Source of the DNA: Oscillospiraceae bacterium
Lineage (GTDB): Bacteria > Bacillota > Clostridia > Oscillospirales > Ruminococcaceae
DNA: 48,214 nt
Assembly: GCA_900757485.1 (NCBI GenBank)
Contig: CAAEOA010000050.1
Location: forward strand, 1-48,214
Direction of reading: 5' to 3'
Below the pieces are notes generated by a model. It saw nothing but the letters and a program-made list of their open reading frames with translations, did not search any database and was not told the DNA's origin. The position numbers and the translations under genes are program-made. Shown here one piece after another: positions 6,418 through 16,754 of this stretch. Within the stretch, counting starts at the first letter, position 1. Each line of letters begins with the position of its first letter.

Positions 6418-6825
6418 TCATTTCATTAGTTCGTCTGTCAGACGAAGAATCTCCGGTGCTATCTTTTCACGCTCTTTCTTTATAATGCGATTGTAAAGAG
6501 GATAAGCAAGGCTGACAAGAACAATACCGACAACACCGATTATAATTCCAAACAGCATAGACATTCCTCTGTATGAACCGAGGATTTCGCCTAAATCGGT
6601 CATTGCAAGACTCATTCCAAACCCTAAAATCAAAGCGCCGATTACACCGAACACAAGAGAAGCTGCCTGAGCTTTTTGCGTAACGCCTGCATCCAAGCGA
6701 CGAAGCTGTGCCATTTTGTCCTCTTTTTCTTCGGGTGCGGAATATTTCTTTCGGATTGCTTTGATTTCTTCCTGCTGTTTTGCAGAATAAGTATAGTTAA
6801 AGGTTTCTTTCTCTTTATTCTCCAT
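6418..6825 (-). CDS. Small 2-TM hairpin membrane protein, paralog A
   Basis: FNYTYSAKQQEEIKAIRKKY N-terminal helix, central Gly-rich TM hairpin, C-terminal helix. Paralogous to 15726-16115 and 15271-15636. Start set at the ATG 9 nt after GGAGG (alternative start 6834). Confidence 0.7.
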   Translation of the reverse strand: MENKEKETFNYTYSAKQQEEIKAIRKKYSAPEEKEDKMAQLRRLDAGVTQKAQAASLVFGVIGALILGFGMSLAMTDLGEILGSYRGMSMLFGIIIGVVGIVLVSLAYPLYNRIIKKEREKIAPEILRLTDELMK

Positions 6826-7714
6826 CTTTTTCATCCTCCGCTGTTCTTAACAGCTTTAATTTCTTATTACTCTGCACAATCATATAAATTGCCATTCCAA
6901 TGATAAATACCGAAATCACACCGCCCGTAGCTCCAAGCATAATGCGTCTGGTTGTCAGATCCATTGTACCGTCACCGAAGGTTGTCAGCATTGTAGACTC
7001 CAAGGTAAGCATGGATACCAAGGCCGCTGTAAGGCTAATAGCCTTGGAAGCAGAATATACGGGACTGTTATATTTACGGTATTTTACCACATTCATAATC
7101 GCCATTGTTAGCGAGGCGAAGGTGTATGCAGCCATCGTAATCGTAGTAATTTCGTGATGATTGAAAGTCCTGTTCCAATACACCATAAAGAAAATAATGA
7201 GTGCAAGAGCTAAGTTCATTAAAAGGAACACAATCCCGCAGGCACGGTACTTAATAAGTTCTTCTTTCATAAGCTCGCCGGGTTTATGACGGCTTGTATG
7301 AAGAACCAAGAAGAAACGCATTATGGCAAGAGCAATATAATATCCTGCAAGGGAATAAAACCAAAATGTATGATGCCAAAATCCCATGCCGAGTTGCAAA
7401 AGCGCATATGCCGTATTCCAAATCAGCGTGCCGAAAAGTGATACGTTCACTCGAAGTCTATCATCGTCCTGCCACCGTCTTGAGTATTTGTTTTCATCTT
7501 TGAAAGTCTTAAAAAACCGAATTAAATACGGCACTTTCAGAGTCCAAATCATCAATGTGTAAAAGGCAAGCACATAGGACACGATGGCGATGATGGAATC
7601 TGACCCCATAAATACTAAGGAATATACCAAAAACACTGTTGCGATAGGAAGCAGAATTATCATTATAGCAATGGGAGGAAACAAAACTGCTTTACCGATT
7701 TTCTTCCAATCCAT
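6815..7714 (-). CDS. Polytopic membrane protein, unknown family
   Basis: 299-aa ORF with about 7-8 hydrophobic segments. SD GGAGG upstream. Starts 1 nt after the HK stop. Confidence 0.7.
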   Translation of the reverse strand: MDWKKIGKAVLFPPIAIMIILLPIATVFLVYSLVFMGSDSIIAIVSYVLAFYTLMIWTLKVPYLIRFFKTFKDENKYSRRWQDDDRLRVNVSLFGTLIWNTAYALLQLGMGFWHHTFWFYSLAGYYIALAIMRFFLVLHTSRHKPGELMKEELIKYRACGIVFLLMNLALALIIFFMVYWNRTFNHHEITTITMAAYTFASLTMAIMNVVKYRKYNSPVYSASKAISLTAALVSMLTLESTMLTTFGDGTMDLTTRRIMLGATGGVISVFIIGMAIYMIVQSNKKLKLLRTAEDEKDGE

Positions 7715-7715
7715 A

Positions 7716-8783
7716 TTATGTCCTCCGAATTTTCACGGTAAATGTAGTACCAACGCCAACAATGCTTTCTACGCCGATTTCACCCTGCAAAATATCAATT
7801 ACTCTTTTAACAAGAGCAAGTCCCAGACCGTTGCCTTGAACGGAATGGGAGGTGTCGCCCTGATAAAACTTCTCGAAAATGTGTGCACCTACTTCTGCGG
7901 TCATTCCACAGCCTGTATCCTTCACTTTGACGATGGCGTGATGTTCGGTGGCTGTAAGCTGTAGCGATACCGAGCCGCCCTCCTCGGTGAATTTGAAAGC
8001 ATTGGAAAAAAGATTATTCCACACAAGAGAAAGAAGTTCAGCATCCGCCTCCACCTTAATATCTTCCGCAATATCGGTGTCTATCTCAATATTCTTCTTT
8101 TCCCACACATTTTCAAATTGCAATAAGCATTCACAAAGCTGTTCTCCTAAATCAAACGTAGTGGTTTCGGGAAAAATCTGCTGATTCTCAAGACGATTTA
8201 GCTTCAGAATATTGGTCATCATTTCAGAAAGACGGCGTGAAGCATCGGTTACGCCCTTAGCATACTCTATGCGCTTTTCTTCGTTCAAATCAGGGGCCTG
8301 CAGAAGTGTTCCGTAATTGTTGATTACAGCAAGGGGCGTTTTCATTTCGTGGGATACGTTAGCAATAAAATCGGTACGCAGGGTTTCCACACTGGATAGT
8401 TCTTCTGCCATTTGGTTTATTGCCATAACAATCTGATTAAAGCCCTCCATGCCGGAGCTTTGCATGGGTTTAATGCGAACGGAAAAATCACCGGACATGA
8501 TCTTTTCGGTTGCTTCTGTAATGATTTTAGTTGGACGCTCAACCATAATTTTGCGTCGAATATAATCTGCAAATTTGAAAAGAAATGTAATTAAAATTAC
8601 GTTCCAAAAGGTTACCTTTGCGGCAGTGCCAACATTGTCGGGAGTGATTGTAAGCTCCATAGTATCTGCCAATATGCTAACAAACAGCATCATGCAGCAG
8701 GACACGATAAATCCCACTGTTAAGAAGAACAACAAAAAGCTACTAACCGATCCCAATACATCTTTCAGCGTCGGTTTCTTCAT
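7716..8783 (-). CDS. Sensor histidine kinase, intramembrane-sensing type (2 TM, ~20-aa loop, HAMP, HisKA, HATPase_c)
   Basis: H-box FIANVSHEMKTPLA, N-box NLFSNAFKF, G-boxes DTGCGM and GNGLGLALV. Very short extracytoplasmic loop between TM1 and TM2. Confidence 0.9.
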   Translation of the reverse strand: MKKPTLKDVLGSVSSFLLFFLTVGFIVSCCMMLFVSILADTMELTITPDNVGTAAKVTFWNVILITFLFKFADYIRRKIMVERPTKIITEATEKIMSGDFSVRIKPMQSSGMEGFNQIVMAINQMAEELSSVETLRTDFIANVSHEMKTPLAVINNYGTLLQAPDLNEEKRIEYAKGVTDASRRLSEMMTNILKLNRLENQQIFPETTTFDLGEQLCECLLQFENVWEKKNIEIDTDIAEDIKVEADAELLSLVWNNLFSNAFKFTEEGGSVSLQLTATEHHAIVKVKDTGCGMTAEVGAHIFEKFYQGDTSHSVQGNGLGLALVKRVIDILQGEIGVESIVGVGTTFTVKIRRT

Positions 8784-9451
8784 TTGATCACCGCCTTGTA
8801 GCCAAGTCCGTGAACTGTTTTGATCTCAAAATCCTCACAGTCAGACAGCTTTGAACGAAGCTTTGTCATATACACATCAACTGCGCGGGGAGCCGTTTCG
8901 GTATCAGCATCCCAAAACTCATCCATAAGCTGCGTTCTTGTAAAGGTCTTTTTAGGATAACTAAGCAGCTTATAAAGGATGCTGAACTCACGATTGGTAA
9001 GGGAAATTTCTTCATCCCGTAAATATGCTGTATGTTCATCCGCATCCATAACAAATCCACCTATTTCAAGTTTGCGTGAGGATGCGATCTTTGCACGGCG
9101 AAGAAGTGCACCGATACGTAAAAACAACTCGTCAAGGTCGATGGGCTTTACCATATAGTCGTCTACACCGATGCGGAAGCCTCTCTGCTTGGAGGCAATA
9201 TCATCACGGGCAGTCATAAAGAGGATCGGAATGTCCTCGTTCAGCTCTCGCACATTTCTTGCAAATTCAAAACCATCCACGCCGGGCATCATAATGTCGG
9301 ATACGATAAGGTCGAACATATTCTCATAAAGCGCATCGTAAGCATCGTTTGCATTCAAACATCCGGTAGCTTCATATCCGCTGTGGTTCAAAAACGAGCA
9401 AACAGTCTTGTTCAGCTCCTTATCATCCTCTACAACCAATATCTTAAACAT
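8780..9451 (-). CDS. OmpR/PhoB-family response regulator
   Basis: MFKILVVEDD...DLIVSDIMMPGVDG receiver domain. C-terminal winged helix ...VHGLGYK. Start moved to the ATG at 9451 (GGAGG 8 nt upstream). Confidence 0.9.
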   Translation of the reverse strand: MFKILVVEDDKELNKTVCSFLNHSGYEATGCLNANDAYDALYENMFDLIVSDIMMPGVDGFEFARNVRELNEDIPILFMTARDDIASKQRGFRIGVDDYMVKPIDLDELFLRIGALLRRAKIASSRKLEIGGFVMDADEHTAYLRDEEISLTNREFSILYKLLSYPKKTFTRTQLMDEFWDADTETAPRAVDVYMTKLRSKLSDCEDFEIKTVHGLGYKAVIK

Positions 9452-9487
9452 CGTGTTACCTCCGCTTATTACTATCATTCATTATAC

Positions 9488-9521
9488 AGTATAACACCCA
9501 AATGTTAAAGTTTTGTTTATG
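9488..9521 (-). promoter_or_regulatory. Promoter of the RR-HK operon with two phased 8-bp boxes (probable autoregulation)
   Basis: -10 TATACT (rc of 9488-9493). Boxes TGTTAAAG (9503-9510) and TGTTTATG (9514-9521) are 11 bp apart. The 9-nt gap to the -10 matches the three island promoters. Confidence 0.55.
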
Positions 9522-11380: not shown

Positions 11381-12217
11381 TCAATATACGTCACACTTAT
11401 TCAAAAGGCGTGTGCCTGCCACGTTATAGATGACCGCCCAAGCAACCGACACAACAATGCAGATCAGCAAAGATCCGATACCGCTTGAAAGGTTGGCGTT
11501 AACCGATGCGCCGTAAAGGAAAACGTTGAGGAAGCTCGTAGGAAGCCCCAGCCCTTCGACGATCGCCGCTGCACCGATAATGAGGATACCCGTTCCAAAG
11601 AAGAAGGACGAAGCAACGGAAATGCCGAAATATCTTCTGAAGATCACGTTGAGGAAGGTATAGAGGCTTGCCCAACCGAGAGACATCACCATTTTTCCGA
11701 GAACGGCGATGACAAGCGACCCGACGTTGACCGTAGCATCGTAGCCTGCGAACATACCGCCGACAATACCGCCAATAAGATACGTTACGCACATACAAGC
11801 CATTGCAAAGGCACATACGAGAGTTTTAGAAATCATATAATCCTGTTTCTTTGCGTGAGTGGTAAAGAGCTGCTTAACGTAACCCGATTTATAGTCGTGA
11901 CCGATGAAGATCGACACCATAATACCGCCGAAAATGAAAACCATATTCATATTGGCATAGTCTGCGATTCCTTCAATCACATACAGCGACTTGGATGCAG
12001 CTATGATCTGCCATAAGTTCGAATACAAGGGGGTGCTTGCACTGCCGTCGGGTCCGGGCATCGTTGTCATTGCAGATACCATCGCAGGGATGATCGCCGC
12101 AATAGCGAGGAATATGTAAAACATAGGCGTGTGGAAGAGCCTGTAAAAGTCCACGCCGAGCATACCTTTAATTCGCTCCGAAAAACTCGGATTTTTGAAT
12201 TTGAGTTCTCTTGTCAT
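11381..12217 (-). CDS. ABC-2 type transporter permease (pair 1)
   Basis: 278-aa multi-TM protein. N-terminus KFKNPSFSERIKGMLGVDFYRLF parallels KFEKISFGKRIGSMLKVDFRRMF of pair 2. Confidence 0.75.
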   Translation of the reverse strand: MTRELKFKNPSFSERIKGMLGVDFYRLFHTPMFYIFLAIAAIIPAMVSAMTTMPGPDGSASTPLYSNLWQIIAASKSLYVIEGIADYANMNMVFIFGGIMVSIFIGHDYKSGYVKQLFTTHAKKQDYMISKTLVCAFAMACMCVTYLIGGIVGGMFAGYDATVNVGSLVIAVLGKMVMSLGWASLYTFLNVIFRRYFGISVASSFFFGTGILIIGAAAIVEGLGLPTSFLNVFLYGASVNANLSSGIGSLLICIVVSVAWAVIYNVAGTRLLNKCDVY

Positions 12218-13134: not shown

Positions 13135-14697
13135 TTATAGCATTGGTGCGAATATTCTGACTACTGCTCGGATAAACCTTTGCAGCAGATTTGTTTTCAG
13201 CATATCCTTTGTAACTTCAATACTTTTGTTTAAGATATCCTCAATATCGGCTTTTAAATCTTTGATTGACTCACAGCCATACATCCACACACCGTTTTCA
13301 AAGTGATGGACAAGACTGCGGTAATCTAAGTTGATGGTTCCGATCATCGCTTGGTTATCATCTGAAAGATAGCTTTTGGCGTGAATAAAGCCGGGTTCGT
13401 ATTCATAAATTCGCACCCCTGCCGCCATCAGTCTGTGGTAAAAGCTTTGTGTCATACCAAAGACAAGCTTTTTGTCGGGAATATGCGGGACAACAATGCG
13501 GACATCTACGCCACGCAAAGCAGCATTTTCTATGCTTTGACACAGATCATTGTCGATGATAAGATACGGTGTTGTCATCCACATATACCGAGTAGCACTG
13601 TTCAGCATATTCTGAATTACACTCTTGCCAACTCTGCGATTGTACAGAGGATGTGGGCCATCGCCGAAAGGAATGACATACCCTTGTTCTTTTATCTCTG
13701 TTTTGGGATACAGGTCATCACGGATGTTCGGCATTTTTCTCACGTTGATACCGAAGTCCACAAGGAACAGCTTTGTCAATTCCTGTACTGCTTCGCCTTC
13801 CAAACGAATGGCAGTATCCTTCCAATGACCGTACTTCACAATCTCATTGATATATTCGTCAGCAATATTAACGCCGCCTGTATATCCGATTTTTCCGTCT
13901 ATAACTGTGATTTTACGATGGCTGCGGTTATTGAACTCACTGTCTGCGTTGCCTTTCAATCTTGAAAAGGGTGTTGCCTCAATGCCGTAGGATTTCAGCG
14001 TTTTGTGGTAATTGCCGGGGAGCGTCATCATACAGCCGATGTCATCGTATAAGACTTTAACCTCAACACCGGCAGCAGCTTTTCTTCTCAGAATCTCCAA
14101 TATGGAGTTCCAAAACTTGCCTTCTTCAATGATGAAGTATTCCATATAGATGAACTTTTCAGCGGTTTCCAAGTCTTCAATCAAACGGTGATGCATATCT
14201 TCGCCAAGGGGAAAATACTCCTGCTTGGTATCGGTAAATAAATGCGCTTCGCCAATACCTGTCAGCATCTTTGCCTGAGAAGCAACTGCGGGATTTTCTT
14301 TCTTGAGAGTCGAAAACAACTCGCTGTCATCCTGCTTATAACCCTGACTTTTTAAGGCATCCAGCCGCTTTACAAATCGCTTCTGCAATTTTCTGGAATA
14401 AAACATAAAATACAGCATGAAGCCGGCGATGGGGATAATCAGCACGAATAGCAGCCACGGTACTTTGTAATCGGGATTGTCATCGGAAGCAATAATGCGA
14501 ATCACGCAAAAGATTTCCGTTGCCCAGGCTGCAAGATAAAAGTACGGCACATAATAGCAAAGAGCGCCCAGAATACCAATAACAGCAAGAACCTCAAAAA
14601 GCGTAATCAAAACGGCAAGTATGTATCGAACAGGGATATAAGAATACTCCCGTTCCCTCTGTTTTTGACCGTCAAAATAGCTGTATTTTCGTTTCAT
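13135..14697 (-). CDS. cls: Cardiolipin synthase (PLD superfamily, two HKD motifs)
   Basis: N-terminal 2 TM. HKD motifs HRKITVIDGKIGYTGG and HAKSYLSDDNQAMIGTINLD. Typical length of 520 aa. Confidence 0.9.
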   Translation of the reverse strand: MKRKYSYFDGQKQREREYSYIPVRYILAVLITLFEVLAVIGILGALCYYVPYFYLAAWATEIFCVIRIIASDDNPDYKVPWLLFVLIIPIAGFMLYFMFYSRKLQKRFVKRLDALKSQGYKQDDSELFSTLKKENPAVASQAKMLTGIGEAHLFTDTKQEYFPLGEDMHHRLIEDLETAEKFIYMEYFIIEEGKFWNSILEILRRKAAAGVEVKVLYDDIGCMMTLPGNYHKTLKSYGIEATPFSRLKGNADSEFNNRSHRKITVIDGKIGYTGGVNIADEYINEIVKYGHWKDTAIRLEGEAVQELTKLFLVDFGINVRKMPNIRDDLYPKTEIKEQGYVIPFGDGPHPLYNRRVGKSVIQNMLNSATRYMWMTTPYLIIDNDLCQSIENAALRGVDVRIVVPHIPDKKLVFGMTQSFYHRLMAAGVRIYEYEPGFIHAKSYLSDDNQAMIGTINLDYRSLVHHFENGVWMYGCESIKDLKADIEDILNKSIEVTKDMLKTNLLQRFIRAVVRIFAPML

Positions 14698-15636: not shown

Positions 15637-15669
15637 TTTGATTACCCCTTTTCAATTTGTTGTAGGCAC

Positions 15670-15714
15670 ATTATACCGTGCCGATGTTTTTGAAAGTTTT
15701 GAAAATTGTTTGAG
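15670..15714 (-). promoter_or_regulatory. Promoter P1 with three phased 8-bp boxes (candidate response-regulator-dependent)
   Basis: -10 TATAAT (rc of 15670-15675). Boxes at 15685, 15696 and 15707 (TGTTTTTG, GTTTTGAA, TGTTTGAG on the plus strand), 11-bp period. No good -35. Confidence 0.6.
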
Positions 15715-15725
15715 TTTTATTAAAA

Positions 15726-16115
15726 TCACTCTGTTTTTTCGCCGGTAAGTTCTGCCGTGAGTTCAAGGATTCTCGGCGCATATTTTTCTTTGGTCGCGCT
15801 GAATACCTTGCGGTACACGGGGTATGCCACGAGCATTCCTGCCATACCTACGATGCCGATCAGAACTCCAATGATCATCATTACCAGTCCACTTCCGATT
15901 ACCTGCATCGCAAGGCAAAGTCCCAACCCGAAGATTAACGCACCCCCAATACCGGCGCATAAGGATTCAACCATTCCCGAAGCCTGAACTGTTTCATCAA
16001 GACGCTTTAGCTCTTCCAATTTGCTTTCGCTTTTGGGAAGGTATTTTTTTCTGATTGCCTGTACTTCTGCATTTTCTTTAGCAGAGTATTTATAGCTGAA
16101 AGTATTTTCCATCAT
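15726..16115 (-). CDS. Small 2-TM hairpin membrane protein, paralog B
   Basis: FSYKYSAKENAEVQAIRKKY matches FNYTYSAKQQEEIKAIRKKY of paralog A. Central TM hairpin. SD GGAGG. Confidence 0.7.
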   Translation of the reverse strand: MMENTFSYKYSAKENAEVQAIRKKYLPKSESKLEELKRLDETVQASGMVESLCAGIGGALIFGLGLCLAMQVIGSGLVMMIIGVLIGIVGMAGMLVAYPVYRKVFSATKEKYAPRILELTAELTGEKTE

Positions 16116-16141
16116 TTTGATTTCCTCCGAAAGAACAGCGA

Positions 16142-16447
16142 TTATTTTTCACCGTTCAGTCTTTTCTTTGCATCCTCTACAGTTTCGCCGTCTTTGGCAA
16201 AGAACTTTTCGACACACTTGTCAGTCACCTTACCGAAGCCGTCAACAACACCTGTTTCGATTTTCTTGTAGCCGCTGACTACACCGTCCTCAATCTTCTT
16301 ATAACCGGTAACAACCGCGTTCTCGATCTTTTTGTAACCACTGACCGCACCTTCTACTGCGACTTCTGCAACTTCTTTTGCCAGTTCCGGGTCTACACCG
16401 GACATATCGTGCTCTCTTGCCATCATTTCCATCTGCTTGTTATTCAT
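16142..16447 (-). CDS. Small soluble protein with four 11-residue repeats
   Basis: VSGYKKIENAV/VTGYKKIEDGV/VSGYKKIETGV/VDGFGKVTDKC. Start moved to MNNKQ (GGAG SD), because the track start overlaps the -10 box. Confidence 0.6.
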   Translation of the reverse strand: MNNKQMEMMAREHDMSGVDPELAKEVAEVAVEGAVSGYKKIENAVVTGYKKIEDGVVSGYKKIETGVVDGFGKVTDKCVEKFFAKDGETVEDAKKRLNGEK

Positions 16448-16481
16448 CGTAATAATCTCCTTTTCTTGATTTTGTGTCCTC

Positions 16482-16526
16482 ATTATACCTTTCGGTTGTT
16501 TGAGAGTTTTTTGAGAAATGTTTGAG
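16482..16526 (-). promoter_or_regulatory. Promoter P2 with three phased 8-bp boxes
   Basis: -10 TATAAT (rc of 16482-16487). Boxes TGTTTGAG (16497), TTTTTGAG (16508) and TGTTTGAG (16519). Confidence 0.6.
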
Positions 16527-16587
16527 TTTTGTTAATTTTGAAATTTCTTTCGCAATGCTTATTGCGCTTTCATCACCGTACAAGCGA

Positions 16588-16632
16588 ATTATATACTGTC
16601 AATGTTTTTGCAGTGTTTGAGAAATGTTTAAG
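16588..16632 (-). promoter_or_regulatory. Promoter P3 (tandem duplicate of the P1/P2 design)
   Basis: -10 TATAAT (rc of 16588-16593). Boxes TGTTTTTG (16603), TGTTTGAG (16614) and TGTTTAAG (16625). The ~55 bp are near-identical in layout to P1. Confidence 0.55.
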
Positions 16633-16710
16633 TTTTATTAAAATGAAAACCACACTGTTTTGAAGTGGGCTAAAAAGAAAAGATAACATTTACACATTTG
16701 TCACTTAGAA

Positions 16711-16748
16711 GCAAAAATGGCGGCAAGGATTTTACTCCCTGCCGCCAT
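16711..16748 (-). terminator. Intrinsic terminator after the 16755 gene (right boundary of cargo island)
   Basis: Minus strand ATGGCGGCAGGGA-gtaaaa-TCCTTGCCGCCAT followed by TTTTTGC. Confidence 0.8.
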
Positions 16749-16754
16749 CACCAT

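Follow-up and report, generated by a model that had tools for sequence, protein, structure and literature searches.

What controls a promoter that has a sigma-A-type TATAAT -10 element and phased repeats in place of a -35 element? The question is raised by a 48,214-nt stretch of DNA from an Oscillospiraceae bacterium (contig CAAEOA010000050.1 of assembly GCA_900757485.1; hereafter the window), whose minus strand carries three such promoters, P1, P2, and P3, together with the genes of a two-component system composed of a response regulator (RR, 8780-9451) and a histidine kinase (HK). An initial annotation had proposed that the three promoters belong to an OmpR/PhoB-type activator regulon. Comparative analysis supports this proposal by conserved arrays, their co-occurrence with the RR, and a two-unit operator at the promoter of the RR itself (P_RR). 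On these sequence comparisons, we consider it likely that the RR controls an autoregulated regulon of the OmpR/PhoB activator type, in which P1-P3 would be activator-dependent.

The minus-strand sequences of P1 (TTTTAATAaaaCTCAAACAattTTCAAAACtttCAAAAACAtcggcacggTATAAT), P2 (AATTAACAaaaCTCAAACAtttCTCAAAAAactCTCAAACAaccgaaaggTATAAT), and P3 (TTTTAATAaaaCTTAAACAtttCTCAAACActgCAAAAACAttgacagtaTATAAT) can be aligned without gaps. They have in common the layout TTAAYA-aaa-CTCAAACA-ttt-CnnAAAnA-nnn-CAAAAACA-N9-TATAAT, in which four units form direct, not inverted, repeats with a period of exactly 11 bp. All coordinates in the initial annotation were rechecked and are correct, namely the -10 elements and the box starts at 15685/15696/15707, 16497/16508/16519, and 16603/16614/16625. 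The exact 11-bp spacing of the boxes and the 9 nt between the proximal box and the -10 were likewise verified at P1-P3. Three boxes per promoter had been described; these exist, but a fourth unit, TTAAYA, is located 11 bp further upstream in all three promoters. The motif C(T/A)(C/A)AAACA assigned to every box fits most of them, whereas the middle boxes of P1 (TTCAAAAC) and P2 (CTCAAAAA) are degenerate. The statement that no credible -35 is present holds, as TTGACA matches at 16-18 nt spacing average only about 1/6 over a set of 81 sites that includes P1-P3. The ATG start codon of parC follows the P1 -10 at a distance of 33 nt, and that of the 11-mer-repeat gene (16447, preceded by AAGGAG) follows the P2 -10 at 34 nt.

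This set of sites was obtained by following one of the downstream genes, parB, into other genomes. Homologues of parB are present in 13 of 60 related genomes, and upstream of those in other families the order of four units, 9 nt, and -10 recurs. We built a sequence-only covariance model (R1) on 12 such sites and used it with a matching position weight matrix (PWM); the genome search scores only the top first-look candidates, and most genomes are incomplete metagenome-assembled genomes (MAGs). Across all genomes 81 distinct sites were found, P1-P3 included, 69 of which are outside the seed. The sites give the consensus TTAAcA-aaa-CtnAAACA-tTT-CnnAAAaA-ntT-caaAAACA-N9-TAtAAT, in which the leading C and the AACA cores hardly vary (1.6-2.0 bits at the leading C and the ACA end). 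The 9-nt spacer is invariant, the -10 always reads TAnnnT, and there is no -35. The median distance from site to start codon is 37 nt. Elsewhere the genes behind the sites are parC/parB-like, 11-mer-repeat, and p162-like genes, cls, tandem ABC-2 pairs, and p299-RR-HK, with occasional extra cargo (an MFS transporter, a radical-SAM and DegV pair, or an epimerase and SDR pair). In two genomes the sites are unlinked to the two-component system (G057, site on contig C18 and system on C4; G036, sites on C20 and C29 and system on C11). Hence, the arrays carry a regulon signal that goes beyond local duplication. The initial annotation had counted conservation of the boxes at orthologous loci among the tests of its proposal, and the arrays are indeed kept at orthologous as well as unlinked loci in other genera.

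Within the window's own genome (G000), the R1 search returned three matches only, which are P1-P3. A genome-wide PWM scan, as initially proposed, was run with a triple-box PWM over the whole 3.13-Mb assembly. P1-P3 score 28.5-37.5 bits and are the only sites at 28 bits or above, the best unrelated site reaches 22.4 bits, and simulation of three order-3 Markov genomes gave at most about 21.5 bits. This matrix was trained on P1-P3 themselves, and conservation across genomes is the real test. A weaker genome match (C303:12210, 19.9 bits, 7-nt spacer) is unsupported by the R1 search and was discarded.

We then inspected the RR and its promoter. As had been annotated, the product of 8780-9451 is an OmpR/PhoB-family regulator with a receiver domain and a Trans_reg_C winged helix; its best PDB relatives are DrrD, RegX3, MtrA, BasR, and PhoP. 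All orthologues (at least 59% identity) keep the recognition helix RAVDVYMTKLR as well as the wing TVHGLGYKAV. Based on tblastn maps of related loci, RR-HK-p299-parA is the conserved core module, of which the RR is the sole DNA-binding protein, and the HK has the architecture of the intramembrane-sensing type. P_RR scores 50.1 bits with a two-unit PWM and is the only site in G000 at 18 bits or above. We drew 79 RR-orthologue loci from a species-representative genome collection, and 78 of them have YAAACA-aaa-CTTTAACA-ttt-nnn-TGn-TAnnnT upstream of the RR, with the proximal box exactly 9 nt from the -10. The TGn extension occurs in 68 of these 78 RR promoters, compared with 6 of the 81 four-unit sites. 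Scored with the RR-promoter PWM, the distal pair of the four-unit sites reaches 13.8 bits and the proximal pair 0.1 bits (Wilcoxon p = 1.4e-12).

The sites also track the RR from genome to genome. Orthologues of the RR form a distinct group at 59-62% identity or above, while the next paralogues do not exceed 53%. In the related set (60 genomes, the window's own left out), an R1 match was found in 10/10 genomes having an RR orthologue and in 2/50 lacking one (Fisher p = 8.8e-10). In an independent class set of 398 genomes, none of them in the seed, the corresponding numbers are 9/15 and 3/383 (Fisher p = 1.7e-12).

From the observed architecture, conservation, and co-occurrence, a model can be proposed that predicts binding, activation, stoichiometry, and the type of inducing signal. 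P1-P3 would be sigma-A-type promoters whose four-unit, 11-bp operator, with the core (T/C)(T/A)AACA, replaces the -35. The phosphorylated RR would most likely bind the operator head-to-tail as two dimers, which is suggested by the four units, and the bound RR would recruit RNA polymerase in the manner of PhoB at PHO boxes. The stoichiometry is predicted to be one dimer at the RR promoter versus two at the targets. P_RR, with its closer-to-consensus two-unit site and TGn-extended -10, would provide basal expression and positive autoregulation. The presence of TGn at RR promoters and its rarity at targets suggest that basal expression of the two-component system is possible while the targets are strictly activator-dependent. 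The likeness of the distal pair to the autoregulatory pair, together with the degeneracy of the proximal pair, suggests cooperative loading, in which the strong distal site would load the weak activating proximal site. The intramembrane-sensing kinase may in this way switch on an envelope-remodelling and export set, consisting of small proteins with two transmembrane helices (2-TM), the amphipathic 11-mer-repeat protein, cardiolipin synthase, and two ABC-2 exporters.

Several observations weigh against this activator regulon. P3 has no gene of its own, and there is no credible open reading frame (ORF) before P2. The seeds of R1 and the PWM were loci beside RR or par genes, so conservation at such loci is partly by construction. 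Four genomes with an RR orthologue (G343, G156, G258, and G439) gave no R1 match, and five drafts (G043, G058, G410, G426, and G444) have strong sites and no close RR orthologue. The discordant genomes of both kinds are draft MAGs. In 30/78 RR promoters, that of the window included, the reading TTAACA-N16-TATAAT makes TTAACA usable as a -35. Among the RR-only genomes whose loci were retrieved, G343 has a weak TTAACA-type array of 23 bits (locus L100) and G145 has arrays of 29-34 bits; similar arrays were seen by eye upstream of parC at L101 and L102. We rejected TTAACA as the -35 of RR promoters in general, since the second -10 at 16 nt is found in 30/78 of them versus the 9-nt geometry in 78/79 loci. 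It is possible that TTAACA-N16-TATAAT at P_RR is a basal promoter in which the RR box itself supplies the -35.

Such a promoter could fire without an activator, and so could the RR promoter by virtue of its extended -10, as expected if the RR binds the arrays and represses, either in a derepressible system or at a negatively autoregulated RR promoter. Spanning -22 to -62, the operators overlap the stretch with which RNA polymerase has to make contact and would occlude the enzyme. However, the targets have no -35 and mostly no TGn, so that they would be nearly silent when unactivated, and PHO boxes activate from the geometry seen here, a register fixed at 9 nt from the -10 (PMC4415409). We regard repression as very unlikely. 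The five site-only drafts could also mean that the arrays are bound by another transcription factor, i.e., a paralogous OmpR-family regulator or a host factor, instead of the linked RR, and the genomes carry many OmpR paralogues (46-51% identity). This is contradicted by the strong genome-by-genome co-occurrence with close RR orthologues and by the site kept at the RR's own promoter; moreover, the site-only cases are on short contigs or contig ends of MAGs. Another factor is a most improbable substitute for the RR.

A third explanation needs no dedicated protein. The units are A-rich and one helical turn apart, and phased A-tracts could bend the DNA like an UP element; P1-P3 precede paralogous genes and have about 55 bp in common with one another, and their likeness could stem from segmental duplication of promoter and gene together. 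The non-A positions are nearly invariant, however, the array stands in for the -35 instead of lying upstream of one, and it is kept across families with unrelated flanks and tracks the presence of the RR, leaving this explanation with very little probability. Alternative ECF-type sigma promoters are hardly credible, for although GAAAC/CAAAC resembles the AAC motifs of ECF -35 elements and AAC-containing boxes might act as the -35, the -10 is sigma-A-type TAnnnT (TATAAT-like) and not CGTC-like, the boxes lie 9, 20, and 31 nt from the -10 and not 16-17, and no sigma factor gene is in the conserved module. On this evidence, we rejected the readings as ECF promoters, as phased A-tracts, and as duplication alone.

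The block that the activator regulon would comprise has, on the minus strand, the order terminator, P3, P2, 11-mer-repeat protein, parB, P1, parC, p162, and cardiolipin synthase, followed by two ABC-2 ATPase/permease pairs, a hairpin, P_RR, RR, HK, p299, and parA. The coordinates are collected in the table below.

Table. Positions of the promoters, operator units, and genes of the regulated block in the window
Feature	Position	Strand	Details
P1, four-unit operator and -10	15670..15725	minus	R1 51.3 bits, E 3.3e-13
P1 unit 4	15725-15718	minus	TTTTAATA
P1 unit 3	15714-15707	minus	CTCAAACA
P1 unit 2	15703-15696	minus	TTCAAAAC
P1 unit 1	15692-15685	minus	CAAAAACA, then 9-nt spacer
P1 -10	15675-15670	minus	TATAAT
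P2, four-unit operator and -10	16482..16537	minus	R1 47.7 bits
P2 unit 4	16537-16530	minus	TTAAYA core
P2 unit 3	16526-16519	minus	CTCAAACA
P2 unit 2	16515-16508	minus	CTCAAAAA
P2 unit 1	16504-16497	minus	CTCAAACA
P2 -10	16487-16482	minus	TATAAT
P3, four-unit operator and -10	16588..16643	minus	R1 44.9 bits
P3 unit 4	16643-16636	minus	TTAAYA core
P3 unit 3	16632-16625	minus	CTTAAACA
P3 unit 2	16621-16614	minus	CTCAAACA
P3 unit 1	16610-16603	minus	CAAAAACA
P3 -10	16593-16588	minus	TATAAT
P_RR, RR-HK operon promoter	9481..9521	minus	two-unit operator and -10
P_RR distal unit	9521-9514	minus	CATAAACA, then aaa
P_RR proximal unit	9510-9503	minus	CTTTAACA, then 9 nt
P_RR TGn-extended -10	9493-9488	minus	TATACT
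P_RR second -10	9486-9481	minus	TATAAT, 16 nt from TTAACA
Strong intrinsic terminator of upstream mobile-element operon	16716..16749	minus	upstream boundary of regulated block
11-mer-repeat protein, 101 aa	16447-16142	minus	behind P2/P3
parB, small 2-TM paralogue	16115-15726	minus	behind P2/P3
parC, small 2-TM paralogue	15636-15271	minus	behind P1
p162, FLxTKG-repeat protein	15247-14759	minus	behind P1
Cardiolipin synthase (cls)	14697-13135	minus	behind P1; TIGR04265 335.6 bits, above cut-off
Two ABC-2 ATPase/permease pairs	13121-9653	minus	behind P1
Hairpin after last ABC gene	about 9648-9616	minus	
OmpR/PhoB-family RR, 223 aa from MFKILVV	8780..9451	minus	PF00072 6.6e-26, PF00486 2.7e-21
Histidine kinase, HisKA and HATPase_c	7716..8783	minus	two N-terminal TM helices, about 19-aa loop
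p299, polytopic membrane protein	6815-7714	minus	partner in RR-HK-p299-parA module
parA, small 2-TM paralogue	6418-6834	minus	partner in RR-HK-p299-parA module

ParA, ParB, and ParC are mutually paralogous small 2-TM proteins. In Pfam and NCBIfam searches, no family match was obtained for them or for p299, p162, and the 11-mer-repeat protein, and both ABC permeases match only ABC2_membrane_4 (PF12730), ABC2_membrane_2, or ABC2_membrane_3. Five regulon families have no Pfam or NCBIfam model, namely the par 2-TM proteins, p299, the p162 FLxTKG proteins, the VSGYKKIE 11-mer repeats, and a 157-184-aa 2-TM family present at loci L021, L033, and L071; all five recur behind the operator in other genomes. 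Because no terminator was found between parB and P1, transcription from P2/P3 probably extends into the P1 operon. The gap between p162 and cls contains a weak terminator-like hairpin (14743-14729, minus; ACGGCATTTTGCCGT, then CTCGCTTTTC), at which transcription coming from P1 may be attenuated before it reaches cls and the ABC genes. The cls or ABC operon has its own four-unit promoter in G027, G036, and G057.

P3 is situated just downstream of the strong terminator and 106 bp from P2. The interval between them (16538-16587, minus) contains a small hairpin, CGCAAT-aagc-ATTGCG, with 6 bp and no U-tail. Two candidate ORFs were rejected here. The 47-aa TTG ORF at 16583-16440, running from P3 through the P2 operator, is non-coding, as it has no ribosome-binding site and overlaps the operator. 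The other, a 113-aa ORF that overlaps the P2 -10, extends the 11-mer-repeat gene too far upstream, past its real start at the ATG described above. In other genomes a short 11-mer-repeat gene is flanked by two such promoters (G027, locus L069, sites 11119 and 10646), which is why P3 may be left over from a gene since lost or may be an additional upstream promoter. The P1 -10 is located inside a 5-bp inverted repeat, GGCAC-ggtataat-GTGCC (window 15665-15682), which is absent at P2 and P3 and is probably due to chance.

The cargo of the regulon differs among genomes. The fullest version seen is L069 (G027:C31:10001-30000), where five consecutive four-unit promoters in a 10-kb cluster precede cls; radical-SAM and DegV genes; a 58-aa 11-mer-repeat gene; p299-RR-HK; and p162 with two ABC-2 pairs, respectively. 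At L034 (G026:C29), four-unit promoters at 12105-12161 and 13550-13606 are divergent from the RR operon. The first precedes the gene for a 470-aa protein of no assigned family, and the second precedes NAD-dependent epimerase-like and SDR-like genes, as judged by eye.

Relatives of the RR are encoded in at least 593 stretches of the species-representative collection. The best 80 of them have 82-98% identity and are almost all from MAGs of gut or faecal samples, many from ruminants, with hosts including goat, deer, sheep, and cattle (gut). Labels among these 80 include Oscillospiraceae, Acutalibacteraceae, Ruminococcus, Lachnospiraceae, Roseburia, Lachnospira, and others. An RR orthologue with 84% identity is on a 160-kb contig of a MAG labelled Anaeroplasmataceae (L173, CALUYM010000003.1), reflecting either a transfer outside Clostridia or a binning or labelling problem. 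The distribution fits an island that is cargo of a mobile element.

A broader reading can be put forward tentatively, and we hold it to be possible but on balance doubtful. The RR-HK-p299-parA module and its (T/C)(T/A)AACA operator code might constitute a self-contained, horizontally mobile envelope-defence regulon across hundreds of uncultured gut Clostridia species, including Oscillospiraceae, Acutalibacteraceae, Ruminococcus, and Lachnospiraceae. Its operators would be two-tiered, with a consensus two-unit site and extended -10 at the regulator and a strong distal and weak proximal pair at the targets. Induction against membrane-active antimicrobials would be thresholded, with cardiolipin synthesis, ABC-2 export, and membrane-surface proteins as outputs.

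A dedicated cardiolipin synthase, two ABC-2 exporters, and several families of small membrane proteins, as predicted outputs, point to an inducible membrane-defence programme travelling on a mobile element, which could influence how well gut commensals tolerate lantibiotics, lipopeptides, bile, or host peptides. The mechanism itself is textbook, while the regulon and the operator code are, as far as we found, undescribed. Since the mechanism is conventional, the value lies in the regulon annotation and in a first functional context for several orphan protein families. An uncharacterised, widespread two-component system of gut Clostridia gains a predicted regulon and an operator code that can be tested.

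Among known systems, the PHO boxes of Escherichia coli PhoB are alike in that an OmpR/PhoB-family regulator acts at 11-nt direct repeats replacing the -35, about 10 bp upstream of the -10; a PHO box consists of two 11-nt direct repeats that are bound head-to-tail (PMC4415409). The Pho system differs in its kinase and its outputs. The kinase here lacks a PAS domain and its membrane loop is short, the outputs are cls, ABC-2, and small membrane proteins rather than pst/pho, and the module is mobile-element cargo. By NCBIfam, the RR is not PhoB (168.7 bits versus the TIGR02154 cut-off of 296.2), and the HK is neither PnpS (200.9 versus 400) nor PhoR (184 versus 334). RR and HK match no curated NCBIfam equivalog, with the scores for PhoB, PhoR, PnpS, VanR, and WalK far below the cut-offs. 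In Bacillus subtilis, PhoP recognizes the hexamer TT(A/T/C)ACA repeated four times between -20 and -60, and this hexamer is close to the (T/C)(T/A)AACA units here.

Two-unit direct-repeat operators are known for other OmpR-family regulators, such as TTTAAG-N5-TTTAAG for CiaR and TGTWAH-N5-TGTWAH for WalR. The operators of CiaR, WalR, SaeR, and HssR are similar in having direct repeats with an 11-bp period about 10 bp upstream of the -10. They differ in the sequence and strand of the repeat and in having two units versus four at the targets here, and the RR is no orthologue of these regulators, its best NCBIfam matches being generic and below cut-off. The BceRS-BceAB system, which is induced by envelope-active compounds, likewise combines an intramembrane-sensing kinase, an OmpR-type regulator, and an adjacent ABC transporter. 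Bce permeases are of the FtsX type and have a large extracellular domain, and the sites of BceR are inverted repeats, whereas the permeases here are ABC-2 (PF12730) and the sites are direct repeats. DraRS of Clostridioides difficile was set aside, as its reported output is a novel glycolipid and not these genes. A literature search with the box sequence and "response regulator" returned incidental primer or sequence matches only.

The closest functional analogue found is the autoregulated two-component system EdsRS of Bacillus anthracis, which upon envelope damage induces an operon comprising ABC-2-type transporter genes and a dedicated cardiolipin synthase gene, clsT (PMC7157781). The small 2-TM and 11-mer-repeat proteins are absent there, and no EdsR operator is described in that paper. 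EdsR is of the GerE/NarL type and is paired with a HisKA_3 kinase (PMC7157781), whereas an OmpR-type Trans_reg_C regulator is paired with a HisKA kinase here; EdsRS is an analogue and not a relative.

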